Position numbers and translations under genes: made by a program
Shown: piece after piece, positions 1-49,869 of the stretch
How the letters are laid out: each line of letters starts with the position of its first letter
Numbering within the stretch: position 1 is the first letter of the stretch
Origin: Syntrophorhabdus sp. PtaB.Bin027
GTDB lineage: Bacteria; Desulfobacterota; Syntrophorhabdia; Syntrophorhabdales; Syntrophorhabdaceae
DNA: 64,000 nucleotides
Reading direction: 5' to 3'
NCBI GenBank assembly: GCA_002067585.1
Contig: MVQO01000218.1
Span: 3,455 to 67,454, forward strand
Notes under the pieces: generated by a model
The model's database searches: none
Told to the model about the DNA's origin: nothing
Seen by the model: only the letters and a program-made list of their open reading frames with translations

Positions 1-424
1 CCTCATCCCGCATCCCTTTGACAGTCTGGATGAGCTGAATAGAGTCTATGTCAAATACATTTTTTGCCGTGGGGTGATCTCCAAATTTCTGGTGATCCCC
101 TGAAAGACAGAGAAGGTTGTTGATGCCCAACGCAGCAGCTCCGAGGATATCGCTCTGCATTGCAATCCTGTTGCGGTCTCTGCATACCATTTGCATTATC
201 GGGTCAAGACCCACCCCTTTGAGCACCAGGCACGCAGAAAAGCTACTCATGCGAACTACGCTTGTCTGGTTGTCCGTAACGTTAACGCAGTCTACATATC
301 CGAGCAGATAACTGCCCTTTTTCTTCACAACCTCAGGATCAGCCCCCCGTGGAGGGCCGCACTCCGATGTAACAGCAAAGGTCCCGCTTTTCAGGACCCG
401 TTCGAGGTTGCTCTGCGTGCTCAT
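1..424 (-). CDS. metF: Methylenetetrahydrofolate reductase (5' part, runs off window start)
   Basis: Not in ORF track. Manual minus-strand translation from ATG at 424 gives MSTQSNLERVLKSGTFAVTSECGPPRGADP...DCVNVTDNQTSVVRMSS...DPIMQMVCRDRNRIAMQSDILGAAALGINNLLCLSGDH, which carries MetF motifs. ATGA overlap with the metV stop. Confidence 0.93.
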   Translation of the reverse strand, partial: MSTQSNLERVLKSGTFAVTSECGPPRGADPEVVKKKGSYLLGYVDCVNVTDNQTSVVRMSSFSACLVLKGVGLDPIMQMVCRDRNRIAMQSDILGAAALGINNLLCLSGDHQKFGDHPTAKNVFDIDSIQLIQTVKGMRDE

Positions 425-1089
425 ATTTTCAAGTCCTCCCTCACCCTTTTCCTTGGACCACCGTCCCTGCTCGTTGACCAATCTTTCATGGGCTGGATTT
501 CAAGGTATTTATCCATCATATTCAACTCTCTGTAACGGTCCACTATAAGGTGCCAGGCACACGGAATATCCCTGTCCACCTCACACTTGCCGCCCTGGGA
601 GCCTCCACATGGACCGTTAAATATACTCTTTGCGCATCGAGTGACAGGGCAGATTCCAAGGGTTTTGTGGAGAATGCAGTTACCACAGCCCTGACACCTC
701 TCAGTCCATACACCATGCTCTTCAGTGACACCATAAAAGGTCGTGTTGACTGCCGGCAAAACCAGCCTATCTCTGTAATGCTCTCCTACAAATTGAATCC
801 CACAGCCACACGCCATAGATAGGACCACCTCGTAATCATGAATGAAAGGTTTCAGACTCTCAACATACTCGGGATCGCAGTTGCGCTCAAGCGTTACCTC
901 CCCTATCTCAACAGGTTTTCCTTCCTTCTGCCTGTAAAGGCGAATCTCAGATGCCAGAACCGCAACCTCTTTTGAACCGCCCGTGGCACAGACAGTTACA
1001 CATTCGTTACAGCCAAGGAGGAGTATCTTCGAATAGGGCTTGAGCATCTCGATAATCTCTTCAAAGGGTTTTCTGTTTGCTACTATCAT
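421..1089 (-). CDS. metV: MetV (MTHFR small Fe-S/Zn subunit)
   Basis: Cys-rich motifs GCNECVTVC, ERCQGCGNC, GICPVTRCAKSIFNGPCGGS, CAW; directly upstream of metF. Confidence 0.88.
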   Translation of the reverse strand: MIVANRKPFEEIIEMLKPYSKILLLGCNECVTVCATGGSKEVAVLASEIRLYRQKEGKPVEIGEVTLERNCDPEYVESLKPFIHDYEVVLSMACGCGIQFVGEHYRDRLVLPAVNTTFYGVTEEHGVWTERCQGCGNCILHKTLGICPVTRCAKSIFNGPCGGSQGGKCEVDRDIPCAWHLIVDRYRELNMMDKYLEIQPMKDWSTSRDGGPRKRVREDLKI

Positions 1090-1178
1090 TTTTGGCTCCT
1101 TGTTATCTCAGCTCTCAGTTATTGTCAAATACATATTATTAGCCTTTTGCTCATTTTTGACTGCTAACTGCCAAACGT

Positions 1179-1595
1179 TTACTTTTCCTTTTTTGCAGGA
1201 TTTGGCCCTAGTGTTCGGATTTTCTCTGTCATCTCTCTTGCCACTTCGGCAAAACGTTGCCCCTCAGCTGAAGACATGTTATACATTGCCACGCGCTCAC
1301 CCCCCACCCCGCATTCATCAAGGATATGTTTCAAATACTCTACCCGTTTTTTTGCCCTAATATTTCCCACAAGGTAGTGACAGTCACCTTCAAGGCACCC
1401 CACAAGATAAACACCGTCTGCACCGTCCTCAAAGGCTTTAAGAACATGAGTGATATCTACCCTACCTGTACAGGGGACTTTAATGATTTTCACATTTGTA
1501 GGATAAGAAAGACGCATCGAACCTGCCAGGTCCGCCGCAGTATACCCTCAATATTCGCAACAATAGGCAATAATTTGCGGTTCAAATTTCCCCAT
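1179..1595 (-). CDS. mvhD: Hydrogenase iron-sulfur subunit MvhD, selenocysteine-containing (UGA at 1548-1550)
   Basis: The track ORF (1179-1517) extends in frame upstream through one TGA to ATG 1595, which has a GAGGA RBS: MGKFEPQIIAYCCEY-U-GYTAADLAGSMRLSYP. This matches the MvhD CCxxC...ADLAG motif; KVPCTGRV and GCxxGDCHY are also present. Confidence 0.92.
1514..1538 (-). promoter_or_regulatory. Putative bacterial SECIS hairpin
   Basis: Minus-strand mRNA after the UGA reads GCG-GC-GGACCU-GGC-AGGUUC-GA-UGC. The G-starting apical loop lies about 21 nt after the UGA. Confidence 0.65.
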
Positions 1596-1604
1596 TAGAA
1601 TTCC

Positions 1605-1700
1605 TCAACTACAGTTCATGTTTCGAAAGCAAATGTCCTCGGTCTCACCGTCAACCTTTTCTTCATCCTGTTCTTTTAAATCTGCAATCTTCATTTTCAC
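1605..1700 (-). CDS. Small acidic peptide (29-31 aa) between hdrA and mvhD
   Basis: GTG at 1700 overlaps the hdrA stop (GTGA); alternative ATG at 1694. Translation (MK)MKIADLKEQDEEKVDGETEDICFRNMNCS*. It fills the intergenic gap and is in frame with mvhD. Confidence 0.4.
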   Translation of the reverse strand: MKMKIADLKEQDEEKVDGETEDICFRNMNCS

Positions 1701-4700
1701 GATTCACATTCTGCTACCATGTCGCCTGTTACTTCAGAAAAAAGGGATTTAGCTTTGCCTATAATCTGAGCATCTCTGTAATGCATCAGGTCAATGGCCC
1801 CGGCAGGGCATTCAGCAACACATATGCCACATCCCTTACACTTACTGATATCGATCTCTGCATCACCTTTTTCATTGATCACCGGGACAGAGTATGGACA
1901 TACCCTCACACATGTCAGGCAGGCAGCACACTTTTCTGGCTCAACCCTTGCGACTACTCCGCCGGCTGCGATTTGATCTTTTGACAGGATCGTTATTCCT
2001 CTTGCAACGGCCGCCTCTGCCTGGGCAATACTTTCACGAATATTCTTCGGCGAGTGGCATAGTCCAGCCAGGAACATGCCGTCTGAGGGAAAATCAACAG
2101 GCCTGAGTTTCATATGTGCCTCAAGAAAAAAGCCGTCTATTGTTCTCGGAACCTTGAAGAGGGTTGCAATGGCTTCGTTGTCTCTCGGCACAATGGCACA
2201 ACTGAGGACAAGAAGATCTGTTGTAAAGCTGACCTCTTCCGTGACAGAAGGGTCAAAACATGTGATAGCAAGCACACCGTTACCATTGTTAACGATGGGA
2301 GGATTCGCCTTCTCAAACCGCACAAATCGGATGCCAAGCCTCCGCGCCTTTAAATAGTATTTCTCCAGAAAACCATAGGTCATAATATCCCTGAAAAGGA
2401 TAACCACATCTGCTTCAGGTTTTTGTTCTTTGAGGGTGATGGCATTCTTAATGGCCGTCGAGCAACAGATTCTGCTGCAATACGGACGTGCTTCGCTTCT
2501 TGATCCCACACACTGGATCATAGTTACCCTTTCGTAGCGTGGAAGCCGGCCTGATATGATCTGGCTCTCCAGCTCCGTCTGGGTCAGTACTTTCTCGTTC
2601 TCTCCGTAGAGAAACATGCCGTTTGGCTTGTATTCTTCTCCACCTGTGGCCAAAACGATGATACCGTGGTTGATCTTTTTGTATTTCTTGAGGGGGCCCG
2701 CCTCTATCCCTGTCTCAAAATTTCCCCGGAAACCTGTGTGATCGATTATCTGAGCCTCTGTTTCCACATGTATCAATGGATGGCTGTCAACCCTTTCAAT
2801 TGTCTCCTTCATGAATGATCTGACATCCAGACCGTCGATGGTAGAAAAGATATGTTTCAGGTTGCCACCGAGAGAATCTTCCTGTTCTATGAGAAAGACC
2901 TCAAAGTTCTGATTTGCCAATTTCAGGGCTGCTGTCATACCGGCCATGCCTCCGCCCACAACAAGGGCTTTTTTATTTACATCGAGCATGATGTCCTTAA
3001 GAGGCTTGATGTTGTTGGCGTTCATGACAGCCATCCTGACAAGGGCCTTTGCCTTCTCCGTTGCACCGGCCTTCTCGTGCATGTGGACCCACGAACATTG
3101 GTCTCTGATATTTGCCATCTCAAAAAGATACTTATTCAAACCAGCGTCTCGGATCGTAGCCCTGAAAAGCGGCTCGTGAGTGCGGGGAGAGCAGGACGCA
3201 ACTACTACCCTGTTTAATTTATAATCCTCGATAAGCTGCTTCATTTTATCCTGGGTGTCCTGAGAACACGTGAACAGGTTCTCCTCAGAAAAGACCACAT
3301 TGGGCAAACCTTTCGCATAGGATTGTACTTCAGGGACGTTCACAACACCACCGATGTTGATCCCACAGTTGCAGACAAACACACCTATCCGGGGATCCTC
3401 AGCATCCACATCTTTTTCCGGGGGCAGTTCCTTTATGACAAGTTCTTTCCCTCTTACCTCAGAGATAACGGACCCAGCCTCGCAGGCAGCACCGCTTGCT
3501 TGAATTACTGTTTCAGGGATATCCTTCGGAGCCTCACACGCGCCACTTACATAGATCCCTTCCCTGGAGGTAATAAGGGGATTCTTTTGGCTCGTTTTGA
3601 CAAATCCATACTCGTTGAGTTGAATACCCAGGACATTTGCAAGTGTGGGAAGATGCTCTGAAGGTCTGGTACCCACCGATAAAACAATCAGGTCAAATTG
3701 CTCGGACCTGAGATTCCCGCTCTCGTCAACGTAAACTATCTTAACATCCTTGGTTACCGGGTCTTCCAGGATTCGTGATACAAAGCTCTTGACGTATCGC
3801 ACGCCGTATTCAGACACTGCACGCTCATAGTATTGATCAAATCCCTTCCCAAAAACCCTGATATCAAGGTAGAAAATTGTGGTCTCCATATCATTCTGAT
3901 GTTCTTTTGCAATGATGGCTTCCTTGGTCGCATACATGCAGCATACAGAGGAACAGTATTCGTGCACTTTGTCCCTGCTTCCAACACATTGAACAAAAGC
4001 AATCTTCTTTGGTATCTTCCCATCAGACGGCCTCATTACAACACTTGCCGTCGGGCCTGTGGCAGAGAGAATCCTTTCGAATTCAAGGCTTGTGATGACA
4101 TTTGGATACACACCATATCCGAACTCCTTCTTTTGTGTTGCATCATAGGGGTCAAAACCACTCGTCACGATGATGCTGCCAACCTGTATCCTCTCTTCTT
4201 TCGGAGTTTCGAAATAATCTATTGCTTCGGGCTTGCAGAATTCTTCACAGATCCTACATCCAAGGCACCTTCTGCAATTCAGGCACCGTTCTGCTTCCCT
4301 CTTTGCTTCCTCCTCTGTAAGGGTCTGATAGACTTCCTGAAAACCTGTCCTTTCTGCAACCGGCAAGGATTGGATTGCTACTCTGGCTTTTTTCTCCATA
4401 AAGGTGGGAACATCCTCTACAAGTTTGGTCTCGATCGCCCTTCTGCCCTCTCTCAGATTCCGTCCTTCGAGGTATCTGATGATTGACTCCGCAGCATCTT
4501 TACCCTGGGCAATAGCGTCGATGGCCATCTTTGGACCGGTAACCACGTCACCACCGGAAAAAATCCCTTTAACAGTCGTCTCACCAGTGACCGGGTCGGC
4601 CTTGATACGGCCGTCGTGAAAAACTTCAAGATCATCCAGCTCTGACAGAAAAGCCGTGTCCATTGCCTGTCCGATGGCGATGATGGCTGTATCGGCTTCA

Positions 4701-6139
4701 TGGTAAATTGTAGTCTCTTCATCGTACTGGGGGTTGAACCTACCATACTCATCAAAGACAGACGTGCACCTTTTGAATTCGATACCCTTTATATGACCAT
4801 GGGAGACATCAAAGCGGAGTGGTCCCCACGATGGATGGAAGATTATTCCCTCTTCAACGGCCTGACCTATTTCCCATTTGTGAGCAGGTATTTCATCCCA
4901 CTTTTCAAGACAGACTACATGAACTTCGCGTGCTCCAAGCCTTCTGCTGGTAAGGGCAGCATCTATTGCCACGTTACCCCCTCCAATTATGAAGACTCGC
5001 TTTCCCACTTCAACGGGTGAGCCAATAATAACAGATTTCAGGAAATCCAAACCACTTAATACGCCCTGAGCATCCTCATTCGCCAGACCAAGGCTTCTCC
5101 CAAGGTGCGCTCCAACTGCAATGAAAGCTGCATCGAATGAATTTTGGATATCCTTTATTGAGATATCGCGACCTACCTTTGTATTCAACCGTATCTCGAT
5201 ACCCATTTTTTCAACAATGGCAACCTCTCTCGCCAGTTCGTCCTTGGGCAGCCGGTAGGGTGGTATGCCCACGTACAACATACCTCCAAGCTTGTCGTAG
5301 GTCTCAAAAATGGTTACCTTGTATCCTGCTTTTCGCACCTCTATTGCGCATGTAAGCCCAGCAGGTCCTCCCCCTACAATTGCAACGCTCTTTCCTTTAT
5401 CAGGCCCTACCCCAGGAATCGGAATCTCCCGTTTCCCGACTTCATAATCTGCAACAAATCGTTTGAGTGCACAAATGGCAATCGGTTGGTCTACCTTCCT
5501 GCCGCGCAGACATTCTTCTTCGCAGGGATGGGCACAGATACGTCCAATGATTGATGGGAAAGGAAGCCTCTCCCGTATGATATCTAAAGCTTCAAGAAAC
5601 CTTCCTTCAGCAATGAGGCCAACGTAGTCCCTGGCATTAAGGTTAATCGGGCATCGATCTACACAGGGCGCTATCTCTCTGTCAATCATGTAAGTCGATG
5701 GGATGGCCTGGGGAAAATTGATGAAGGCTGCGCTTCGCTGAGACATACCCACGTTGTAATCGCTACCCACCTCTAAGGGACAGGCAGGGGCACACAGAGC
5801 ACAGGATGTACATTTTTCAGGCAAAACCCTCCGTGGCTTTCTTCGAAGCGTCACTGTAAAGTTGCCAGGTTCTCCGGTCAGATCTATCACATCAGTGTTC
5901 ATCATGAGTTCTATGTTGGGGTTCCTACCAACTTCTACGAGCTTTGGAGCCATGATGCACATGGAACAGTCATTGGTAGGAAAGGTCTTATCAAGCTGTG
6001 CCATACGCCCACCAATGTTTGGTTTTTCATCGATAAGATACACTCTGAAACCCGCCTCGACGAGATTCAAAGAGGCTTCCATTCCTCCAATTCCTCCACC
6101 GATTACAAGTACCTTACCTACTTTGTCTACCTTTTCCAT
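1697..6139 (-). CDS. hdrA: Large heterodisulfide reductase subunit A with inserted GltD-like NAD(P)H-binding module (HdrL-type)
   Basis: LDKTFPTNDCSMC, two QCVGSR..YCSxxCC motifs, VFVCNCG/CSPRTHE, two HdrA Rossmann motifs plus GltD-like APC..CP..GRIC..PCE, GGGPAG and GGGNVA, and a C-terminal 2x[4Fe-4S] domain. Confidence 0.93.
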   Translation of the reverse strand: MEKVDKVGKVLVIGGGIGGMEASLNLVEAGFRVYLIDEKPNIGGRMAQLDKTFPTNDCSMCIMAPKLVEVGRNPNIELMMNTDVIDLTGEPGNFTVTLRRKPRRVLPEKCTSCALCAPACPLEVGSDYNVGMSQRSAAFINFPQAIPSTYMIDREIAPCVDRCPINLNARDYVGLIAEGRFLEALDIIRERLPFPSIIGRICAHPCEEECLRGRKVDQPIAICALKRFVADYEVGKREIPIPGVGPDKGKSVAIVGGGPAGLTCAIEVRKAGYKVTIFETYDKLGGMLYVGIPPYRLPKDELAREVAIVEKMGIEIRLNTKVGRDISIKDIQNSFDAAFIAVGAHLGRSLGLANEDAQGVLSGLDFLKSVIIGSPVEVGKRVFIIGGGNVAIDAALTSRRLGAREVHVVCLEKWDEIPAHKWEIGQAVEEGIIFHPSWGPLRFDVSHGHIKGIEFKRCTSVFDEYGRFNPQYDEETTIYHEADTAIIAIGQAMDTAFLSELDDLEVFHDGRIKADPVTGETTVKGIFSGGDVVTGPKMAIDAIAQGKDAAESIIRYLEGRNLREGRRAIETKLVEDVPTFMEKKARVAIQSLPVAERTGFQEVYQTLTEEEAKREAERCLNCRRCLGCRICEEFCKPEAIDYFETPKEERIQVGSIIVTSGFDPYDATQKKEFGYGVYPNVITSLEFERILSATGPTASVVMRPSDGKIPKKIAFVQCVGSRDKVHEYCSSVCCMYATKEAIIAKEHQNDMETTIFYLDIRVFGKGFDQYYERAVSEYGVRYVKSFVSRILEDPVTKDVKIVYVDESGNLRSEQFDLIVLSVGTRPSEHLPTLANVLGIQLNEYGFVKTSQKNPLITSREGIYVSGACEAPKDIPETVIQASGAACEAGSVISEVRGKELVIKELPPEKDVDAEDPRIGVFVCNCGINIGGVVNVPEVQSYAKGLPNVVFSEENLFTCSQDTQDKMKQLIEDYKLNRVVVASCSPRTHEPLFRATIRDAGLNKYLFEMANIRDQCSWVHMHEKAGATEKAKALVRMAVMNANNIKPLKDIMLDVNKKALVVGGGMAGMTAALKLANQNFEVFLIEQEDSLGGNLKHIFSTIDGLDVRSFMKETIERVDSHPLIHVETEAQIIDHTGFRGNFETGIEAGPLKKYKKINHGIIVLATGGEEYKPNGMFLYGENEKVLTQTELESQIISGRLPRYERVTMIQCVGSRSEARPYCSRICCSTAIKNAITLKEQKPEADVVILFRDIMTYGFLEKYYLKARRLGIRFVRFEKANPPIVNNGNGVLAITCFDPSVTEEVSFTTDLLVLSCAIVPRDNEAIATLFKVPRTIDGFFLEAHMKLRPVDFPSDGMFLAGLCHSPKNIRESIAQAEAAVARGITILSKDQIAAGGVVARVEPEKCAACLTCVRVCPYSVPVINEKGDAEIDISKCKGCGICVAECPAGAIDLMHYRDAQIIGKAKSLFSEVTGDMVAECES

Positions 6140-6180
6140 GGTCTGTCCCGTATGTGAAACTTCTTTGCTGCATTTATACC

Positions 6181-6543
6181 TTACCGCCTTACCTTTTTAA
6201 AAACAGCTTCTCTTCCCGCATATCCACTGATCTCTACCATATTCCTCCCCAGGAGATCCTTCATGTGATCAAAAACCTGCTGCAGTCTCATTCCTGTTGC
6301 CACTGACAGGTCATCAATTGTACTGTCATTTTTTGCAAGTGTCTCCAGGATACGCGCCTTCTCGAATGCTGCCTCGAGGAGAGAGGTGAATACAAGAGAA
6401 AACTGCCTGCCGGTCATTTTTTCACCGTACACATTCCCGGACATCAAGGCGTCTTTTTTATTGAGAAGTCTTGTGAGTTTCTCAGCCCCTCCGGGGTAGT
6501 GTGTTTTTACGTAGTCAAGTTTCTCGTCAATATTCATGACCAA
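6181..6543 (-). CDS. Hypothetical protein with C-terminal winged-helix-like segment, inside hdr operon
   Basis: 120-aa ORF between hdrB and hdrA; TIDDLSVATGMRLQQVFDHMKDLLGRNMV has an HTH-like pattern. Likely start ATG 6537. Confidence 0.7.
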   Translation of the reverse strand: MVMNIDEKLDYVKTHYPGGAEKLTRLLNKKDALMSGNVYGEKMTGRQFSLVFTSLLEAAFEKARILETLAKNDSTIDDLSVATGMRLQQVFDHMKDLLGRNMVEISGYAGREAVFKKVRR

Positions 6544-6551
6544 TACCGGAT

Positions 6552-7415
6552 TTATCCACCTATCTTCTTCACCTTCTTTACAGCCTGGTCCACGGCTATC
6601 ACATGAGAGTTGCTGCCGCTTAGTCTTCCAGAGATGGCAAGCTCAAAAACCTCGGATAGAAAGAGAATGGGAAGAGCCTGGTCAGTCCTGCCAAGATAGG
6701 GTAATAGATCGAGGTTCAACTGGCAGAGCGGACATGGCGTTACAATTACATCAGCTCCGAGCAATACTGCCATATCCATGATCTTATCTGAAAGGTCATA
6801 GGTAATATCCTTATCCGTCAGCGTTTTGCTCGCACCACAACACTCCATCTTATATGGCCAGTTTACAAGCTCAACCCCTAGAGCCCACAGCAATGAATCC
6901 ATGCTCGTTGGATTTTCTTTATCGTCAAAGGCCTCCATACCCATGACCCTCGTGAGAAGACAGCCATAATAGGGGACAACCCTAAGGGGAGAGATGTCAT
7001 ATTTAAGCCTTCCGGCAATAACCTCAATCCCCACACGGTCATGGAACACTTCAATGATATTCTTAACCTCTCCAGTACCCAGGCATTTGAGTGGTGAAAT
7101 AACGCTGTTAATATCCTCCCTGAAATTCTTGTCCTGTCTCATGCGCTCATTTGTAACCTTCGTCCGTATGTAACATGCTGAACAGGGGGCGAACAGATGA
7201 TTGTTCTGTTTTTCTGCAAGGGCAAGGTTTCTTGCAGCCAGAGCATGGGCAAGTCTCTCATCTACCGTATTTGCTGCAGATGCCCCGCAGCATGACCAGT
7301 CGGGAAGTTCCTGAATCTCTATCCCGTAAAAGGAAAAAACTTGCTTTATGGATGTTTCATAGAACTTGCTCGATGTCTTAAGTGAACAGCCTGGATAATA
7401 GGTAAGGGCTGTCAT
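6552..7415 (-). CDS. hdrB: Heterodisulfide reductase subunit B (two CCG domains)
   Basis: YYPGCSL, DWSCCGAS, CSACY, YYGCLL, ECCGAS, TPCPLCQLNLD. Confidence 0.93.
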   Translation of the reverse strand: MTALTYYPGCSLKTSSKFYETSIKQVFSFYGIEIQELPDWSCCGASAANTVDERLAHALAARNLALAEKQNNHLFAPCSACYIRTKVTNERMRQDKNFREDINSVISPLKCLGTGEVKNIIEVFHDRVGIEVIAGRLKYDISPLRVVPYYGCLLTRVMGMEAFDDKENPTSMDSLLWALGVELVNWPYKMECCGASKTLTDKDITYDLSDKIMDMAVLLGADVIVTPCPLCQLNLDLLPYLGRTDQALPILFLSEVFELAISGRLSGSNSHVIAVDQAVKKVKKIGG

Positions 7416-7464
7416 TGCCTGAGGGTCCCTAAATGCCCATATTCCCCCGGTCGATACAACAAAA

Positions 7465-8022
7465 TCACTGGCTGCATTTCTTAAATATCTCCTTCAACTG
7501 CTCACGATCCCTCACGCTGTGTGGAAAAATACCCATCCTTCCCTTCAGGAGCATGCCTATTCCCATTTTGGCATCTTCAAAAAGATTTTTCTTCTCTACT
7601 TTGAAGCGGAGAATAGCCTCTATTTCGTGGAGTCTGCCATGGCGTGCAACGCTATCCAAAAATATCTTATCAAAAGTCCACGTATCCGTTTCTGCTGCCT
7701 TCTGCTCCTTAATGGCTACTTTTCGGATGGTATCGAAGACATGGGCAATGTCTATGTCGTTCGGGCACCTCACACTGCACGTGATGCACTGGACACAGGT
7801 CCATATCGCTTTAGCTTTGAGTACTTTTTCTCGCTCACCGAGGATTATGTAACGGATAATTCCATGAGGAAAGATATCCATCTGAGTGACTACCGGACAA
7901 CCTGCTGTGCACCGGTAGCACTGGTAGCACGCTGATATGTTTTGTCCTGACAATGCTTCCATTTCTTTTAAAAATGTGAGATCGTTCATTCGATATCCCG
8001 GGTTTTCCTCATATTTGAACAT
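7465..8022 (-). CDS. hdrC: Heterodisulfide reductase subunit C
   Basis: CYQCYRCTAGCP and IWTCVQCITCSVRCP; adjacent to hdrB. Confidence 0.92.
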   Translation of the reverse strand: MFKYEENPGYRMNDLTFLKEMEALSGQNISACYQCYRCTAGCPVVTQMDIFPHGIIRYIILGEREKVLKAKAIWTCVQCITCSVRCPNDIDIAHVFDTIRKVAIKEQKAAETDTWTFDKIFLDSVARHGRLHEIEAILRFKVEKKNLFEDAKMGIGMLLKGRMGIFPHSVRDREQLKEIFKKCSQ

Positions 8023-8059
8023 CCAAGCATGAGAGTTTTGCTAACCTGCTTACTGCCAT

Positions 8060-8088
8060 ATTATAAGTAATAACCCCTTGGCTTACAA
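8060..8088 (-). promoter_or_regulatory. sigma-70-type promoter for the hdr-met operon
   Basis: Minus strand TTGTAA-17 nt-TATAAT, about 40 nt upstream of hdrC. Confidence 0.6.
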
Positions 8089-8225
8089 GTAGACTGGGGT
8101 CGACAAGCAGCGTTAACCGCTTGTTGATCACAGCCCGCATTATAATGAAGTGTACCTTAAATGGAAAAACAGGAAATGCGCATTATGGCAGACCTTGTTC
8201 CACGAAAGCTTATCTGTCTTGTTTC

Positions 8226-10597
<2,372 letters not shown>

Positions 10598-39929: not shown

Positions 39930-41345
39930 TTAAGGTTTCACCTTAATGAGTCTATGCTTTTTGAGTAGAGCATAAAGACGTGAACGTGACAATCCTGAAA
40001 TCCGACAGATCTCCTTGACATTGTTCTTCGTTCGGGCAATCAGTTCCACCAGATATTGCCGTTCAGCCTCATCGATGATATCCCCCCTGAATGAACTCAA
40101 CGTGGTAAATTCCTCGATCTTCCCTCCACCCGGAAGAACAGGCTCGACTGGTTTTTTCGTTTCTTTCAGGGCAGCATGGGCCAGCTTCACACGCAGGTAA
40201 GTCGGTAGATGTTTCGGATAAAGGGTCGGCTCATGGAGAGCACTGCAAACTGCAGTATCCATGGCATTGGCAAATTCTCTGACATTTCCTAACCATTCAT
40301 ACCCAGTAAGCGCGTCAAAGAATTCTGGTGTAACGCCTTTCATCGCAACCCCGTATCCTTCGCAGAACTTTCTAAGATAGTGTATCGTCAGCTCCTTGAT
40401 ATCTTCCTTTCTTTCTCGCAAGGGGGGAAGCTCTATTGTAAGAGCCTGAATTCTGAACAGGAGATCGGTTCTGAACTGACCGTTGGCAACCATCCTGTCA
40501 AGCTTTCTGTTGGTGGCTGCAATGAGCCTGAAATCGCTTTGTTCTTCCCCGCTGGAGCCGATAGGGCGAAACCTGTGTTCCTGCAAGACCCTCAAAAAAG
40601 ACTTTTGAATCAGAGGGGGTAACTCTCCAATCTCATCAAGAAAAAGCGTTCCCCTGTGCGCCAGCTTGATAAGGCCCTCCCGCGAACGATCCGCGCCTGT
40701 AAAAGCTCCTTTTTCATGGCCAAAAAGCGTGCTTTCAACGAGATTATCTGGCATGGCAGCACAATCCACCACGATGAAGCTTTTGTCTGCCCTTTGGCTG
40801 TTATCATGTATGGCACGAGCAAACAGTTCTTTTCCAGTTCCTGTCTCACCGGTTATAAGTACATTGATATCGCTCTGTGCTGCCTGGGCAACGAGATCAA
40901 AGCACGCCCTCAGTGAGGGGCTATTACCTATTATGTTGTCCTTTTTGAGGAGAACCGGTGGTTTTGTGGCAAGTCCCTTCTTCTCCCGGTACTGAATTGC
41001 CCGTGTCAGGACCAGCCTCATGGAGCTGAGGGAACAGGGTTTTTGGATAAAGTCCCACACACCGCTTTTCATGGCAAGCTCAGCACTGTCAGAATCTCCG
41101 TGTCCTGTGATAATGATGACCTCTGGCACAGAACTCATGTCCTTGATAAGGGGAAGAATATCCAGGCCATTCCCATCCGGGAGTCTAACATCCAAAAAAA
41201 TCACATCATAATCGTTAGCGAGGATCTTTTGCCGTGCATCTTTTAATGTAAATGATGATTCAGGGCGATGGCTCATCCTTGTCACCATTTCAACAAGCAT
41301 ATCAGACACATCACTGTCGTCATCGATGATCAGTATATCTGCCAT
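39930..41345 (-). CDS. sigma-54-dependent response regulator
   Basis: REC domain, GETGTGKE, GAFTGA, WLGNVRE, HTH. Confidence 0.95.
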   Translation of the reverse strand: MADILIIDDDSDVSDMLVEMVTRMSHRPESSFTLKDARQKILANDYDVIFLDVRLPDGNGLDILPLIKDMSSVPEVIIITGHGDSDSAELAMKSGVWDFIQKPCSLSSMRLVLTRAIQYREKKGLATKPPVLLKKDNIIGNSPSLRACFDLVAQAAQSDINVLITGETGTGKELFARAIHDNSQRADKSFIVVDCAAMPDNLVESTLFGHEKGAFTGADRSREGLIKLAHRGTLFLDEIGELPPLIQKSFLRVLQEHRFRPIGSSGEEQSDFRLIAATNRKLDRMVANGQFRTDLLFRIQALTIELPPLRERKEDIKELTIHYLRKFCEGYGVAMKGVTPEFFDALTGYEWLGNVREFANAMDTAVCSALHEPTLYPKHLPTYLRVKLAHAALKETKKPVEPVLPGGGKIEEFTTLSSFRGDIIDEAERQYLVELIARTKNNVKEICRISGLSRSRLYALLKKHRLIKVKP

Positions 41346-41357
41346 GGGCCACCCATA

Positions 41358-44300
41358 TTATACCCCTGTCGTCCCGTGAACTTCAGGATCCTTTCGGCTG
41401 TATTCTTCCTTATGCAGCACCCTCTGTATGGCATCCAAAAGTTCCTTTTTGGTAAGGGGCTTCATGAGGAATTCCTTGATACCTGCTTCTTTCATAATAT
41501 CTGTGGTTACAACGTCGCTGTGCCCTGTGCACAGTATGACGGGCATATCCGGCCTTATTTTGTAAATCTCCCTGGCGAGGTCGAGCCCGGTCATCCCAGG
41601 CATTGTCTGATCGGTAATCACAAGATCGAATCCTGATGGGTCAGATAGGAAGATCTCAAATGCCACAACACTGTTATCCAGAGCTGTCACTTCATACCCT
41701 ATTCGCTCCAGCTGCGCCTGCCCCCACTCAACAAGGAATTTCTCGTCATCTATAAACAAGACTCGCTCGCTGTTTCCAGGGGCCTGTTCAGAGGCGGTTT
41801 CCTCTGCTGATAAACCAGCTTCTGCCTTTGGAAAAAATATTGAAAAGGTTGAACCAACACCCGGCTCGCTTTCGGCTTCGATCTTCCCGTGAAGACTCTT
41901 CACGATCCCGTACACAACGGCAAGGCCCATTCCTGAGCCCTGGCCCACTTCCCTGGTCGTAAAGAAGGGATCGAATATCCTTTCCATAACATCAGGGGTC
42001 ATACCTGAGCCAGTATCGCTCACAACCACCCGCAGGTATTCCCCCGAGCCCATGTCAGGGTTGAGTATCGGGGAATCGGGCTCAATGTTAACATCAGTAA
42101 TGCTCACGTGAACCATCCCTCCTTTTTCGTTCATGGAAAGGGCAGCATTCGTTATAAGATTCATGAATACCTGCTGCACCTCAACCGGTGTGGCAAGGAT
42201 GGTATCAGAGACAGCGGCAATATCGAGCAGAATATCAATGGTGGTAGGAATTGAGGCTCGCAAGAGCTGTACCGTCTCCCTCGCCAGTGAGGCAACGGAC
42301 ACAGGTTTGCGGGCATGTTCTGTCTTCCGGGAAAACGCGAGGATCTGCTGAACCAGTTCCCGCCCCCTAGAAGCCGCACGAATCACCCTTTGAACGTGTT
42401 CAAGCTTTGGTCTGCCCTGAGGAATGTCCTCTTCAATCATTTCAGCAAACCCGATAATTGCTGCCAGGATATTATTAAAATCATGGGCAATCCCCCCTGC
42501 AAGGGTGCCGATTGCTTCCATCTTCTGAGAGTGACGCAGTTGATCTTCAAGATTTTTATATTCCGTAATATCCCTCAAGTAAGACAGTGACGCCGATTCT
42601 CCGAGATAGGTTGTTCTCACTGCTGAAACTTCAATGATTCGCAGGGTACCGTCTTTTTTTAGGCCTTTAAACTCATACCGGGCAGGAGCTGATTTACCCT
42701 CCTGTCTCGTTTTGTTGATTTCCAACACTCTGTTAAGGTCATCAGGGTGAACAGTGATTGACAGAGGTTTTCCAACAATCTCGCTGGGACCTTCATAGCC
42801 AAATATCTCTGCAAACCGTCTGTTGACGAATACGTGAAGGTCATGTACAACCAGAGCAATGCCGTCGGAGGCGCTTTCAATAGCGATTCGATATCTTTCT
42901 TCGCTTTCCCTTAGAGCCTGTTCTGCGTTTCTCAGGGCAGAAATATCCCTGGCCGCAGCAAAAACCCCTAGTACCTTCCTTGTTTCGTCTCTATACAACG
43001 TGGCATTGTAAAGTACAGGGGTAACATGTCCTGAACTGTGGCGAATCTCGAGTTCGTAGTCCCTCACCAGCCCTTCTTTGAACACCTGTTCATATCCGGC
43101 CTTGGCTCTTTCCGGGCTTGTGAAGTAATCAGAAAAATCAGTACCGATGAGCTGGAGTCTTGCACATCCGGTGACTTTCTCTGTGGCTTCATTGACATCC
43201 ATTATCCTCCCATCAGCGCTAATGGTTACAAGAGGATCGAGGCTCGCCTCAATAAGACTCCGATTGTATGCGTTTGCCAGCCGAACTTCCTCTTCAGCTC
43301 GCTTGCGATCAGTAATATCGATACCCATCTCCAGAATGAGCGTGGAACCGTCAGCATCTGTAAAGGGAAAATCGTGGATATCGTAAATATGACCGTCAGG
43401 GCCGGTCCACAGCCATCGTTGAGGTTCAATGGTCTTGAGGGTTTTGTAGGTTTCACAGCCTTCACAGGGGCCTGTGCGCCCGAAGAGATGATGAAAACAT
43501 TGCCTGTCCTCAGGATCCCCAAAAAGCTCCCGAAAAATGCGATTGGCGAATGGTATCCGGTAGTCCCGTGTTAACAAAACCACATAGGCAGGCAACGTTT
43601 CGAGGACACTGTAAAGCCGTTCCCGTTCCTCTTTCACCGCTTCTTCAACCTGTTTTCGAGAGGTAATATCCCGGTTTACTTCCATTATCTCCATTATCCC
43701 GTCGACCTCATTCTGCCGCAATATCCACTTGCTGTGTATCGTTGCCTTCCTCCCTTCCTTACAGGTGTGAATAAGTTCACCTTCCCAGCGTCCTTCGTGT
43801 TTAACGGTATTTATGATGTCTCTGATGGGAACCTGAGATTCTGTCTGTAACAGGTCATATATGTTACTACCAATAGATTCTTCCTGTGAAAATCCGTAAG
43901 TATTCTCGGCACCGGTGCTCCAAAAAATGATCTTTCCATCAATATCAGTCAGAATAATCGCATCCTGTGCCACATTAAGCAATTCTGCCTGTTGTTTGAG
44001 TTGAACAGTGCGCCTTGCTATCTGCAGCTCAAGTTCATCAGCCCGTTCTTTTTCTAGGCGGAGGAGGCGTATCCGGTCCATGGCAGTTGCTACCTGGTCT
44101 GCCACAATCTTCATAAGGGAAAGCTCATCTTCAGCAAAAGTCGAGCGGGACCGAGTGCCAAAAGAGAGGGTGCCAATAACCTGCTCCTGTACAAGAAGTG
44201 GATGACAGAAATAGGCGGTAATTCCCAAAGAGCGGATCAGGCCGGTTTGAATATCGGATGAGGCGGAAATATTCTCTGCCACTATCCGGCATGCATCCCT

Positions 44301-45632
44301 GGCTGCACACCCGCATACTGTTTCGCCATATTCGAGAAAATGTATGCTGTTGGCTATTTCCTCTTCAATGCCTGCATACGCATTAAGCCGTAAACACTTC
44401 ATCTCCTCATCCACAAGAAAGTTCAGGAAAACCTCGCAGTCAAGGTGCTCCATCACTCTGCGGCAGAGTGTTTCTACCATTTTCCGCGGTTCTGTACTGA
44501 AAAGGAGTTGATTTGCTGTTTCAGAAATGATATCGAGCCGTTCCATGCTTCGCAACAGTGCGCCTTCAGCCCGTTTCCGTTCATTAATTTCGTTCTGGAG
44601 TGATCGATTGATTACAGAAAGCTCTTCTGTTTTTTCTCTCTCTTCTCTCGTCGTGGTTCTCCTGACAAGCCAGGAAAAACCAAGCAACACGAAAAAAAAG
44701 ACAAGGGCAATCAGCGAGTAAACCTTGAGCCGCTCCCTCCATCCTTTCACAATAGGATCGAGAGGGGTTGTGGCCGCAACCACTAATGGCAACCTGTCAA
44801 TCTTCCTATACGCTATAAACCTTTTAATACCGCCTGTAGCTCGGGCTTCATACGATCCTGAAGGCTCTTTGTCAAAAGGAATGTTGAAGAGCTTGAGATG
44901 TTTGAAATCCTTTCCGAGAAATTCATCACTCATTGGCTGGCGCAGGATAAGGGCTCCATCGGTTCGAAAAACAATAACCGTACTTTCTTCGTCAAGTTCA
45001 ACGTTGCGCATGAAATTCGCAAAATCATCCGTATCTATAGCAGCAACAATGATGCCCAGAAAACGCCCATCCTTGCTTTCTAGCCTGCGGCTAATAGTGA
45101 AGCTGTATTTCCCCGTTATTCTACCCTTTACAACCGGTCCAATATAAAATCTGGTGCCCAGATCCCTGTGGGCAATAAAATATTCCCTTCCAGAGAAGTC
45201 TATTTGCGGTGAAGGATAAGACGTGGAATCCGACAAAAGACGAGCTTCGTGATCCAACAGCCAGAGAGATCCTGCATCTGAAAGGCCATCCGCAGCTGTT
45301 CGGAAACGCTCCCACTCTTGTTTTGATAAGATAATAGAACGAATGCCTTTTTCCTGGATTCGTATAGCGCGGCCATCCAGAGTCGCCTCAGCAGATATAA
45401 TGGTTCGTCTCACTCTTTCTTCAAGTGAGATGGCTGCTTTTTCAAGGCTAATTCTCGTTCGATCAAGGGTATTTTTGTAATCGGTTCTTGCTACAAACCA
45501 GAGAGTGAATGCATCTAAAAAAAACAAAAAAATAAGAATACTGCTGAGATAGAATTTAGAAGGGAATCTTCGTAATTTTGTGGTGCTCATCGAGGTGTTC
45601 CAGCTAACCGAAACAAAGCCAATTTTCCACAA
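41358..45632 (-). CDS. Hybrid sensor kinase (Cache-like, GAF, about 4 PAS, HisKA, HATPase, REC)
   Basis: Two TM segments, AHDFNN H-box, DTGSGM and GSGMGL boxes, C-terminal FIDDE/TDQTMP receiver. Probable start near 45590. Confidence 0.93.
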   Translation of the reverse strand: MWKIGFVSVSWNTSMSTTKLRRFPSKFYLSSILIFLFFLDAFTLWFVARTDYKNTLDRTRISLEKAAISLEERVRRTIISAEATLDGRAIRIQEKGIRSIILSKQEWERFRTAADGLSDAGSLWLLDHEARLLSDSTSYPSPQIDFSGREYFIAHRDLGTRFYIGPVVKGRITGKYSFTISRRLESKDGRFLGIIVAAIDTDDFANFMRNVELDEESTVIVFRTDGALILRQPMSDEFLGKDFKHLKLFNIPFDKEPSGSYEARATGGIKRFIAYRKIDRLPLVVAATTPLDPIVKGWRERLKVYSLIALVFFFVLLGFSWLVRRTTTREEREKTEELSVINRSLQNEINERKRAEGALLRSMERLDIISETANQLLFSTEPRKMVETLCRRVMEHLDCEVFLNFLVDEEMKCLRLNAYAGIEEEIANSIHFLEYGETVCGCAARDACRIVAENISASSDIQTGLIRSLGITAYFCHPLLVQEQVIGTLSFGTRSRSTFAEDELSLMKIVADQVATAMDRIRLLRLEKERADELELQIARRTVQLKQQAELLNVAQDAIILTDIDGKIIFWSTGAENTYGFSQEESIGSNIYDLLQTESQVPIRDIINTVKHEGRWEGELIHTCKEGRKATIHSKWILRQNEVDGIMEIMEVNRDITSRKQVEEAVKEERERLYSVLETLPAYVVLLTRDYRIPFANRIFRELFGDPEDRQCFHHLFGRTGPCEGCETYKTLKTIEPQRWLWTGPDGHIYDIHDFPFTDADGSTLILEMGIDITDRKRAEEEVRLANAYNRSLIEASLDPLVTISADGRIMDVNEATEKVTGCARLQLIGTDFSDYFTSPERAKAGYEQVFKEGLVRDYELEIRHSSGHVTPVLYNATLYRDETRKVLGVFAAARDISALRNAEQALRESEERYRIAIESASDGIALVVHDLHVFVNRRFAEIFGYEGPSEIVGKPLSITVHPDDLNRVLEINKTRQEGKSAPARYEFKGLKKDGTLRIIEVSAVRTTYLGESASLSYLRDITEYKNLEDQLRHSQKMEAIGTLAGGIAHDFNNILAAIIGFAEMIEEDIPQGRPKLEHVQRVIRAASRGRELVQQILAFSRKTEHARKPVSVASLARETVQLLRASIPTTIDILLDIAAVSDTILATPVEVQQVFMNLITNAALSMNEKGGMVHVSITDVNIEPDSPILNPDMGSGEYLRVVVSDTGSGMTPDVMERIFDPFFTTREVGQGSGMGLAVVYGIVKSLHGKIEAESEPGVGSTFSIFFPKAEAGLSAEETASEQAPGNSERVLFIDDEKFLVEWGQAQLERIGYEVTALDNSVVAFEIFLSDPSGFDLVITDQTMPGMTGLDLAREIYKIRPDMPVILCTGHSDVVTTDIMKEAGIKEFLMKPLTKKELLDAIQRVLHKEEYSRKDPEVHGTTGV

Positions 45633-47995: not shown

Positions 47996-48526
47996 ATGGT
48001 AAAAGAGAGCATACCTTACCTTGCCTTCGTCGGTAGATCAAAGACTGGAAAAACTACTGTCATTGAAAAGCTTATCCCTGCCCTCCGTGAAAAAGGGTTT
48101 AAGATAGCGGTTATCAAACATCATCACCATGATTTCGATATTGATATACCGGGAAAAGATACATACCGTTATAAGCAGGCCGGTGCCTCTACAAGCATTA
48201 TTGCCTCACCCGGTAAAGTAGCGGTTGTTGAAGATACTGCGAGAGAACTCCCCCTTCATGAGATTATTACCAGGTATGTACATGATGATGTTGACCTCCT
48301 GCTCATAGAGGGCTTCAAGAAAGAAAACATCCCTAAGATTGAGGTATTCCGTCAAAAAGAAGATGGGACCACACCAGTGTGCACCGGAGATAAAAACCTT
48401 ATTGCCGTTGTTACTGATGAATCAGTGAAAACGTCTCTTCCCATCTTCACACGGAATGATGTTCAGGGGATTGCCGAGTTTATTGTAAACCGTTTTTTGC
48501 GACAAAAATCTTCTGGAGTTCCTTGA
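47996..48526 (+). CDS. mobB: Molybdopterin-guanine dinucleotide biosynthesis protein B
   Basis: GRSKTGKTT, IKHHHHDFDID.PGKDT, LIEGFK. Confidence 0.93.
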   Translation: MVKESIPYLAFVGRSKTGKTTVIEKLIPALREKGFKIAVIKHHHHDFDIDIPGKDTYRYKQAGASTSIIASPGKVAVVEDTARELPLHEIITRYVHDDVDLLLIEGFKKENIPKIEVFRQKEDGTTPVCTGDKNLIAVVTDESVKTSLPIFTRNDVQGIAEFIVNRFLRQKSSGVP

Positions 48527-49739: not shown

Positions 49740-49869
49740 AGAGGATATTTTACCTGAAAGCACTCTTATTTACAAATTTACAGGATTCATACCCTTATAG
49801 TGCAAATATCTTTTTTGTGCTATACTATGTTCACAAAGTTAAGGAACTTGGAGGTCAACAACATACTAA

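Follow-up and report, generated by a model that had tools for sequence, protein, structure and literature searches.

The 64,000-nucleotide stretch of Syntrophorhabdus sp. PtaB.Bin027 examined here (contig MVQO01000218.1; hereafter the window), an uncultured member of the Syntrophorhabdaceae living in anaerobic digesters, carries at positions 1-8088 of its minus strand an operon in which translation of open reading frames (ORFs) and profile searches recognized seven co-oriented genes: hdrC, hdrB, ORF120, hdrL, mvhD, metV and metF. It is very likely that this locus encodes a methylene-tetrahydrofolate (methylene-THF) reductase (MTHFR) of the heterodisulfide reductase (Hdr)-linked type described from Moorella thermoacetica, in which MetF and MetV would be combined with HdrC, HdrB, the large HdrA-like protein HdrL, and MvhD. 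The predicted identity draws on the gene set and its order, domain content, cofactor motifs, linkage of these genes across phyla, RNA contigs that bridge the genes, and a selenocysteine (Sec) codon with an associated hairpin. The best overall explanation of the locus is an NADH-dependent Hdr-type MTHFR operating by the electron scheme proposed below, to which we assign a probability of about 75%; that its complex performs genuine electron bifurcation, a proposal made by analogy, has in our estimate slightly less than an even chance of being correct.

The Hdr-linked MTHFR matters for the energy balance of the Wood-Ljungdahl pathway: NADH is oxidised by the Moorella enzyme, whose second acceptor is still being sought. 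The operon itself is a known enzyme type, and the useful by-products of its analysis are a winged-helix accessory domain, two classes of dinucleotide-binding site and a conserved selenocysteine insertion sequence (SECIS).

Operon layout and the architecture of HdrL

The genes are tightly spaced, with successive intergenic gaps of 49, 8, 41, 101, 89 and -4 nt (all on the minus strand, as are the coordinates that follow). The first of them, hdrC (7465..8022; 185 aa), specifies two CxxCxxCxxxC [4Fe-4S] ferredoxin motifs (cysteines 32, 35, 38, 42 and 76, 79, 82, 86) and matches Pfam Fer4_8/Fer4_17 as well as, over part of their length, the NCBIfam HdrC/QmoC families. HdrB (6552..7415; 287 aa) consists of two CCG domains (PF02754 x2, E=9e-27) and contains both sets of five cysteines of the non-cubane cluster motif (10, 42, 43, 78, 81 and 152, 192, 193, 228, 231), although its match to TIGR03288 (7.8e-38) lies under the cutoff of that family. 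ORF120 (6181..6543; 120 aa) separates hdrB from hdrL, and mvhD (1179..1595; 138 codons; PF02662, FlpD/MvhD, E=5e-51; NF045873, VhuD, 3.7e-53) contains an in-frame TGA at codon 16 (1550..1548). The product of metV (421..1089; 222 aa with 14 cysteines; PF12225, E=5.8e-36) is the Zn/FeS subunit of a MetVF-type methylene-THF reductase. The start of metF overlaps the metV stop by 4 nt, and the window edge cuts metF after its first 141 codons (2..424), which match the MTHFR region of NF006396 at 3.9e-33. An exact-sequence look-up of HdrL returned no record, and for the part of metF beyond the edge we used a 99%-identical metagenomic contig (L002), on which the full MetF has 305 aa (PF02219) and is followed by an unrelated GntR gene. 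A 29-aa ORF called on L002 in the hdrL-mvhD gap (1605..1694) was rejected as a gene: it recurs only on that contig, and the matching gap of a 76%-identical relative is too short for it.

The product of hdrL (1697..6139; 1480 aa) contains two HdrA-like units related to thioredoxin reductase (TrxR) and, inserted into the first, a GltD/NfnB-like module. When compared by phmmer to proteins of known structure in the PDB, it matches the methanogen HdrA chain 5odc_A in four stretches (E=8.5e-190). Residues 23-155 correspond to HdrA 159-291 and cover the FAD-binding TrxR-like start, the DKTFPTNDCSMC signature and the first half of the ferredoxin domain that is inserted in HdrA; residues 624-839 correspond to HdrA 292-510, residues 914-1086 to HdrA 2-174, and residues 1325-1469 to HdrA 505-652. 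Unit 1 starts with aa 1-155 (5675..6139), which contain the FAD-type GxGxxG (aa 14-19), the sequence TNDCSMC (aa 55-61) and the first of the cluster motifs that belong to the inserted ferredoxin domain (aa 110-120). Within this ferredoxin domain lies the GltD/NfnB-like module, aa 156-618 (4286..5674; PF14691, PF07992), with two N-terminal [4Fe-4S] sites, an FAD site (GGGPAG, aa 256) and an NAD(P)H site (GGGNVA, aa 386), after which aa 619-905 (3425..4285) supply the second ferredoxin cluster motif, CLNCRRCLGCRICEEFC, the rest of the TrxR-like unit and a cluster site formed by Cys718/729/733/734. Unit 2 (aa 914-1480; 1700..3400) comprises an N-terminal cluster domain, a TrxR-like FAD domain and a C-terminal ferredoxin domain with two [4Fe-4S] clusters; no CxxCxxCxxxC motif occurs between aa 1087 and 1324, and this unit is without the inserted ferredoxin domain. 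By motif count HdrL has about nine [4Fe-4S] sites and four nucleotide-binding sites, three of which are of the FAD-type GxGxxG form (14, 256, 1062), the other being the dinucleotide site GGGNVA (386).

The signature of the HdrA-type FAD site is conserved in unit 1, and unit 2 provides the flanking cluster domains. Because the two units together hold each module of methanogen HdrA exactly once, we infer that the fusion imitates the methanogen HdrA dimer. The methanogen MvhADG-HdrABC and VhuD complexes (5odc, 9sfi, 8rvu, 7bkb) have in common with the window proteins the folds of HdrA, HdrB, HdrC and MvhD, the cluster motifs and the sequence TNDCS(I/M)C, and in VhuD a selenocysteine occupies the position of the window UGA. 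Unlike these complexes, the window operon contains neither a hydrogenase nor a formate dehydrogenase, the predicted donor site being the built-in NAD(P)H module; its HdrA is duplicated and fused rather than dimeric, and its terminal enzyme is MetVF rather than one that reduces CoM-S-S-CoB.

The inserted module resembles subunits that occur separately elsewhere. HdrL residues 155-635 match 9bov_A (E=5e-118), StnC (8oh5_C), 9n5u_A, Thermotoga maritima NfnB (4ylf_B) and Pyrococcus furiosus NfnI-L (5jca_L), and over some 460 aa (E down to 1e-118) the module shares with NfnB, StnC and GltD the fold and the cofactor motifs, including two [4Fe-4S] clusters, FAD and the dinucleotide site. It differs from them in being embedded in the ferredoxin domain of an HdrA and in the residues of its dinucleotide site. 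The NAD(P)H-binding beta-alpha-beta element, GGGNVAIDAALTSRRLGAREVHVVCLE (4904..4984), has C-L-E in place of Y-R-R: across aa 386-414 (nt 4898-4984), GGGNVA is followed by VVCLEK, the sequence reading ...EVHVVCLEKWDE, whereas the aligned residues in NADPH-binding relatives are VLYRRT (9bov), IIYRRT (StnC), IVYRRT (T. maritima NfnB) and ILYRRT (P. furiosus NfnI-L). HdrL thus lacks the Y-R-R of NADPH-dependent GltD/NfnB modules. In NfnB and GltD the 2'-phosphate of NADPH is held by the arginines of YRR, whereas NADH sites are usually marked by an acidic residue where beta-2 ends.

In a census of the HdrL family, every close relative had (C/A)LE, while YRR was confined to a set of more distant homologues. 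Members of either class are encoded upstream of metVF, and in Desulfotruncus arcticus the two occur side by side in the same organism, each in its own operon (L029, CLE; L050, YRR). On these motifs NADH, rather than NADPH, is the probable cofactor of HdrL, and the CLE and YRR classes may be NADH- and NADPH-specific isoenzymes of the Hdr-type MTHFR. The first-pass annotation of this DNA had taken CLE for YRR as a hint of NADH; the sequence feature stands, and extends to two classes across the family, whereas the preference for NADH is plausible as an argument from a motif.

The closest known counterpart is the Moorella thermoacetica cluster (Moth_1191-1196; Mock et al. 2014, cited after PMC9430772 and PMC5861303), whose six genes, hdrCBA-mvhD-metVF, are arranged as they are here except for the 120-aa winged-helix gene that the window has between hdrB and hdrA. 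Moorella HdrA, a protein of 162.8 kDa and 1487 aa, has N-terminal ferredoxin and TrxR-like domains interrupted by GltD, and its residues 922-1487 resemble methanogen HdrA without the inserted ferredoxin domain (PMC9430772). The layout of the 1480-aa window protein is the same, with boundaries that agree to within about ten residues (C-terminal unit at aa 914-1480 versus 922-1487). Because Moorella HdrA already has this layout (PMC9430772), the window HdrL is, by its domain composition, of the Moorella type and neither a new 'self-contained' variant nor a new design. The Moorella protein oxidises NADH (190 U/mg with benzyl viologen; PMC9430772), and the purified complex has been described as 'Fd(?)- and NADH-dependent', its second acceptor being still to be found (Buckel and Thauer, PMC5861303). 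The hosts differ, that of the window belonging to a Desulfobacterota-type syntroph lineage and not being an acetogen.

Sporomusa ovata has the same cluster, but its HdrA (101 kDa, 942 aa) has no GltD module; it contains two TrxR-like flavin domains, and its canonical unit is without the inserted ferredoxin domain (PMC9430772). With viologen it oxidises NADH about 400-fold less actively, and the S. ovata Hdr proteins are tied loosely to MetVF and partly to the membrane (PMC9430772). The expectation in the first-pass annotation that a built-in NAD(P)H site would set the window apart from both organisms therefore fails for Moorella and holds for S. ovata only. Other points of that annotation fared better: the co-oriented and tightly spaced hdr-mvhD-metVF genes, the Hdr/MvhD-linked MetVF cluster with a GltD-type module in its HdrA, and the HdrL domain map, with the module inside the first HdrA-like unit and a second unit at aa 914-1480, were all borne out, and its gene list was correct for six genes but overlooked the seventh, ORF120.

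The name HdrL derives from Desulfobacterium autotrophicum HRM2, in which such fusions (HdrL1-3) lie beside dsr or fdh genes (PMC2702500). The window protein conforms to the definition, having HdrA domains and a GltD-like module in one polypeptide followed by mvhD, and D. autotrophicum has the same fusion of HdrA with a glutamate synthase small subunit, an NADH-binding site and mvhD next to it (PMC2702500). Its hdrL loci, however, adjoin dsrABC or fdh rather than metVF, and its MvhD and some of its HdrL proteins are selenoproteins (PMC2702500), whereas the window hdrL is without a Sec codon. A further point of comparison is the MetVF-RnfC2 enzyme of Acetobacterium woodii, in which a MetVF core is likewise made NADH-dependent by an NADH-oxidising partner; there the partner is a single RnfC-like subunit, non-bifurcating, with no Hdr or MvhD (summarised in PMC9430772).

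Expression, selenocysteine and linkage to metVF

In four metatranscriptomes from anaerobic digesters and activated sludge, contigs of at least 95% identity cover positions 1..8142, and all six junctions are bridged: hdrC/hdrB by X2 contig 7078-7779, hdrB/ORF120 by X2 contig 6514-7083, ORF120/hdrL by X2 contig 5664-6204, hdrL/mvhD by X5 contig 1548-2041, mvhD/metV by X3 contig 716-1305, and metV/metF by X5 contig 170-424. Contig depth is above zero through the bin 7789-8142 and zero in 8143-8850 in all four data sets, which fits a single transcript starting at about 8050-8140. The operon is probably transcribed as one hdrC-to-metF mRNA.

A probable promoter lies in the upstream region, 8060..8167 (-), where two sigma-70-like matches occur (8088..8060 and 8167..8139). 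The number of promoter consensus matches in this region (17, against 11.6 +/- 3.4 in shuffled sequence) is not above the shuffle expectation, so that the 'one sigma-70-like promoter' announced earlier is reduced to a consensus match with a second match beside it. A terminator scan likewise returned nothing above shuffle expectation, and no terminator-like site in any intergenic gap. Between the promoter-like sites lies an imperfect inverted repeat (8094-8108 / 8119-8133; 15-nt arms, 80% complementary, 10-nt spacer), and this sequence upstream of hdrC (8094-8133) may be an operator; footprinting detected no conserved operator in the upstream sequences of six relatives, which are not alignable.

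Selenocysteine at residue 16 of MvhD is well supported by comparison of sequences. The UGA codon, within the motif CCEY-U-GY, falls in the alignment column of the second Cys of canonical CNWC, as does the Sec residue ('X') of a solved VhuD-type chain, 9sfi_K. Proteins encoded beside metVF form an MvhD sequence class of their own, FCCxx[U/C][GA]Y, represented by 26 distinct UGA-type and 16 Cys-type genes, while MvhD proteins not encoded beside metVF have the canonical CNWC motif. Beginning 13 nt past the UGA, a SECIS-like hairpin of 7 bp, CGGACCU-GGC-AGGUUCG (1518..1534, -), appears in minimum free energy (MFE) folds.

Because selection on an RNA structure would constrain synonymous sites, third codon positions are informative. 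Codons +5 to +10 (GCG GAC CTG GCA GGT TCG) are essentially invariant in 26 of 26 UGA-type mvhD genes: their third-position entropy is 0-0.6 bit, as against 0.9-1.9 bit at flanking codons of the same sequences and 0.9-2.0 bit at the same codons of Cys-type orthologues that have the same peptide, AADLAGS. Third positions agree with the consensus in 151/156 cases in the Sec-type genes and in 38/90 in the Cys-type genes (15-16 orthologues in this comparison set), a difference whose significance (Fisher p=6e-23) is inflated by shared ancestry. These patterns are strong evidence that the conserved hairpin acts as a SECIS element under RNA-level selection, and they bear out the Sec call made in the first-pass annotation. 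Rfam has no family at gathering threshold in the window and none at E<=1 in positions 1-8400, and hence no riboswitch and no catalogued SECIS family was detected there; the 64-kb window contains no tRNA genes, including tRNA-Sec.

The association of HdrL with metVF extends far beyond this operon. A protein search returned more than 120 full-length HdrL homologues (1450-1500 aa; 52-99% identity), those with names coming from metagenome-assembled genomes of Syntrophorhabdaceae/Syntrophorhabdales, and a search seeded with the Desulfotruncus arcticus homologue returned, among the 120 matches listed, many cultured Desulfotomaculia. In a scan of species-representative genomes we retained the best 80 loci with full-length homologues (43-76% identity), Moorella being absent from these as it was from the 120 matches; the loci span at least seven phyla: Desulfobacterota (Syntrophorhabdaceae, Desulfarculaceae, Desulfatiglandales, Syntrophobacterales), Bacillota (D. 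arcticus, Desulfofundulus australicus, Peptococcaceae), and also Acidobacteriota, Planctomycetota, Chloroflexota, Binatia, Aminicenantes and Cloacimonadota. Linkage to metVF was scored by tblastn with the window proteins and could be judged at 69 of these loci, the contigs of the other 11 being too short. The survey of HdrL-metVF adjacency that the first-pass annotation had called for thus yields linkage within 7 kb in 49/69 informative loci: mvhD-metV(-metF) follows HdrL directly in 31, in 10 metVF is also downstream but separated from HdrL by hdrCB (as in Planctomycetota) or by another hdrA that has no GltD, and metVF lies up to 7 kb upstream of HdrL in 8; the remaining 20 have no metVF within the flank. 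The window's seven-gene order recurs, with different flanking genes, in a 76%-identical complete Syntrophorhabdaceae genome. Published reports place Moorella-type clusters in marine Chloroflexi (PMC5736913) and HdrABC beside metF in syntrophic sulfate reducers (PMC10553843).

Co-oriented neighbours of HdrL at other loci include Fhs (4 loci), pterin-binding methyltransferases (3), and ACS/CODH-beta (acetyl-CoA synthase/carbon monoxide dehydrogenase), CdhD and RACo (1 each), which ties the family to C1-tetrahydrofolate metabolism generally, though not in this window. The large-HdrA version of the enzyme is therefore not specific to acetogens but widespread in Desulfobacterota, Acidobacteriota, Planctomycetota, Bacillota, Chloroflexota and others. 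To the published picture the survey adds two classes of dinucleotide site, an MvhD subfamily of its own that is often a selenoprotein, and a winged-helix domain recruited in some lineages, all of which offer handles for finding the missing partner of the Hdr-linked MTHFR. The 1450-1500-aa HdrL proteins now labelled 'FAD-dependent oxidoreductase', 'glutamate synthase' or 'selenate reductase YgfK' could, moreover, be renamed correctly.

Two further arrangements were observed in the survey. A GltD-less HdrA comparable to that of S. ovata adjoins Sec-mvhD-metVF in loci that have a separate HdrL: in L028, L033, L034, L066 and L073 (e.g., L033:816-13398) the order is hdrC-hdrB-hdrL(YRR)-mvhD(CNWC, extended)-hdrA'-mvhD(Sec)-metV-metF, with an hdrA' product of about 1010 aa and no GltD, so that the HdrL that binds NAD(P)H is a different protein from the HdrA next to metVF. 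In the Planctomycetota loci L037, L045, L047, L057 and L071 the order is hdrL-mvhD-hdrC-hdrB-metV-metF, and MvhD is of the Cys type (CCN[YF]CAF).

Proposed electron flow and its alternatives

The arrangement of cofactors suggests a route for electrons. NADH would bind to the GltD-like module, where CLE replaces the YRR that binds the 2'-phosphate (the Moorella enzyme uses NADH), and would reduce the FAD of that module, from which electrons could pass through its two [4Fe-4S] clusters and the interrupted ferredoxin domain, arriving at the unit 1 flavin, which is of the HdrA type and marked by TNDCSMC. Unit 2 would supply the parts missing from unit 1, namely the N-terminal cluster domain, which in methanogens faces MvhD, and the C-terminal ferredoxin domain, which faces HdrC. 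A high-potential branch would then lead through HdrC and HdrB to MetV and the flavin of MetF, where methylene-THF is reduced to methyl-THF (E0' about -200 mV). If the proposal for Moorella is carried over, the drop from NADH (-320 mV) would drive reduction of a low-potential acceptor, for which the candidates are ferredoxin, flavodoxin and a partner contacted via MvhD, the [2Fe-2S]/Sec protein.

Several observations weigh against this interpretation. With the ferredoxins tested, the complex purified from Moorella showed no coupling of NADH oxidation to the reduction of methylene-THF, and in that enzyme, too, bifurcation is at the stage of a proposal (PMC9430772, PMC5861303); nor did Hdr/MvhD of S. 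ovata co-purify tightly with MetVF (PMC9430772). The window enzyme and its close relatives are predicted from sequence, the equivalence to the Moorella enzyme is a comparison with a published description of it, and the reading of CLE against YRR is an argument from a motif. The RNA contigs that bridge the genes are low-depth, assembled and unstranded, and may include DNA. Finally, there are no Wood-Ljungdahl genes in the window and hence no local support for a catabolic C1 role.

Some of the same facts would be expected if HdrL, HdrCB and MvhD served as a non-bifurcating NADH-input module and electron wire to MetVF, in the manner of RnfC2 in A. woodii. For more than 10 years the second acceptor of the Moorella enzyme has eluded detection (PMC9430772, PMC5861303), HdrA homologues exist in non-bifurcating complexes (PMC9430772), and unit 2 of HdrL is without the inserted domain that binds ferredoxin in methanogen HdrA. 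A simple wire, however, should allow NADH alone to reduce methylene-THF, which the purified Moorella complex did not do (PMC9430772, PMC5861303), and three flavins, about nine clusters, the two non-cubane sites of HdrB and MvhD far exceed what a wire needs; unit 1, moreover, retains the flavin-site signature of HdrA. We therefore regard a plain wire as unlikely. A more radical separation, into an NADH-dependent HdrL-HdrBC-MvhD reductase of disulfides (DsrC-type or another thiol) and an adjacent but independent ferredoxin-dependent MetVF, could account for the occurrence of HdrL-MvhD without metVF in 20/69 loci (e.g., in many Acidobacteriota) and beside dsr in D. autotrophicum (PMC2702500), for the presence in HdrB of all cysteines of the disulfide-reducing site, and for the ferredoxin dependence of S. 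ovata MetVF when purified alone (PMC9430772). It fares poorly with the conservation of metVF linkage across at least seven phyla, with a distinct MvhD class that occurs only with metVF, and with the overlap of metV and metF, the tight spacing and the RNA contigs across mvhD-metV and hdrL-mvhD; and the Moorella proteins co-purify as one complex, while the S. ovata subunits pull each other down (PMC9430772, PMC5861303). Two independent enzymes are, on this record, highly improbable, and we retain the single NADH-dependent Hdr-type MTHFR as the preferred reading.

Syntrophorhabdaceae are syntrophs, and a remaining alternative concerns the direction of the reaction and not the identity of the enzyme. 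Rather than reducing methylene-THF, the complex might mainly run in reverse, with oxidation of methyl-THF and reduced ferredoxin yielding 2 NADH (confurcation) in an oxidative Wood-Ljungdahl pathway or in demethylation. The syntroph lineage of the host, the origin of transcripts in anaerobic digesters, and the occurrence of homologous clusters in sulfate reducers and others that use the pathway oxidatively are all in keeping with this possibility, and because the reaction proposed for Moorella is near equilibrium (about -5 kJ/mol; PMC5861303), it could also run backwards. Yet the genes that such a role would lead one to look for, a check suggested in the first-pass annotation, did not turn up: no CODH/ACS, folD, fhs or methyltransferase genes occur in the 64-kb window, in which 20 further ORFs were scanned, nor do any lie beside the cluster in the 76%-identical complete genome, and the actual neighbours are gdhA and genes for an NrpR-like and a GntR regulator. 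Literature searches that paired the Syntrophorhabdaceae with this pathway yielded no helpful report. If this metF is the only one in the genome, it must, in addition, serve methionine synthesis reductively. Predominantly reverse operation thus seems to us improbable, and the physiological role of the Hdr-type MTHFR could be anabolic, supplying methyl groups for methionine, or catabolic, with C1 flux in either direction.

ORF120 and other genes of the window

ORF120 is the only new element of the locus and is not ascribed to any described family: no Pfam or NCBIfam family matches it, Pfam MarR_2 (E=0.012) falling under the cutoff. It is conserved in relatives, with 26 close homologues, all of Syntrophorhabdaceae type. 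In an AlphaFold (AF2) model (predicted local distance difference test, pLDDT, 92) the chain begins with three helices, continues through the loop GNVYGE, which is invariant, and ends in a winged helix. The top Foldseek matches of this model are ArsR/SmtB winged helix-turn-helix proteins, albeit weak ones (E ~3e-3; template modelling (TM) score ~0.46 over ~80 residues); a few homologues carry weak matches to PF01022.

These similarities would make ORF120 a candidate regulator of the operon, but two features led us to downgrade a plain ArsR/MarR repressor. The protein contains no cysteine and lacks the metal- or thiol-sensing residues of such regulators, and its domain, unlike a free-standing dimeric regulator, is repeatedly fused to Hdr and MvhD proteins. 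A profile search of 1.84 billion representative sequences yielded only 92 relatives; the free-standing forms have about 120 aa, while others are joined to the C-terminus of MvhD (P0293, P0295, P0298, P0307, P0317), to a ferredoxin-MvhD (P0303), to an HdrA-MvhD (P0320) or to HdrB (P0267, E=4e-43). At three loci (L066:11730-12182, L073:11766-12269, L078:5238-5723) an ORF120 domain also makes up the C-terminal extension of a CNWC-type MvhD. Because the domain has been fused recurrently to three different subunits, ORF120 is more readily understood as a physical component or adaptor than as an ordinary repressor; most probably it serves the Hdr/MvhD module as an accessory subunit or adaptor, a role in regulation being the less likely possibility. 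The stronger proposition, that it constitutes an undescribed seventh component of the Hdr/MvhD complex while the CLE and YRR classes represent NADH and NADPH isoenzymes, is one that we put forward as a doubtful conjecture; if true, ORF120 might attach the complex to another protein, perhaps one in the membrane or the low-potential acceptor itself, or might alternatively couple redox state to gene expression.

Other genes of the window include gdhA, an NrpR-like regulator, two-component systems, alaS, recA, lpxC, lnt and similar. Next to the operon, at 8226-10573 (-), gdhA, which encodes an NADP-type glutamate dehydrogenase of 451 aa (E=3e-220), overlaps by 4 nt a 331-aa gene whose product on a near-identical contig matches PF08461 and PF01995 (NrpR-like 'DUF128' nitrogen-regulator domains); the pair looks like a bacterial gdhA linked to a nitrogen repressor of archaeal type. 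Signalling genes are unusually abundant: a 1424-aa hybrid sensor kinase (41358-45632, -), with dCache, GAF, several PAS, HisKA, HATPase and receiver domains, is followed by a sigma-54-dependent response regulator (39930-41345, -). A receiver domain of the response-regulator type is also found at the N-terminus of the 427-aa LpxC (48480-49763, -), an unusual feature for the committed step of lipid A synthesis.

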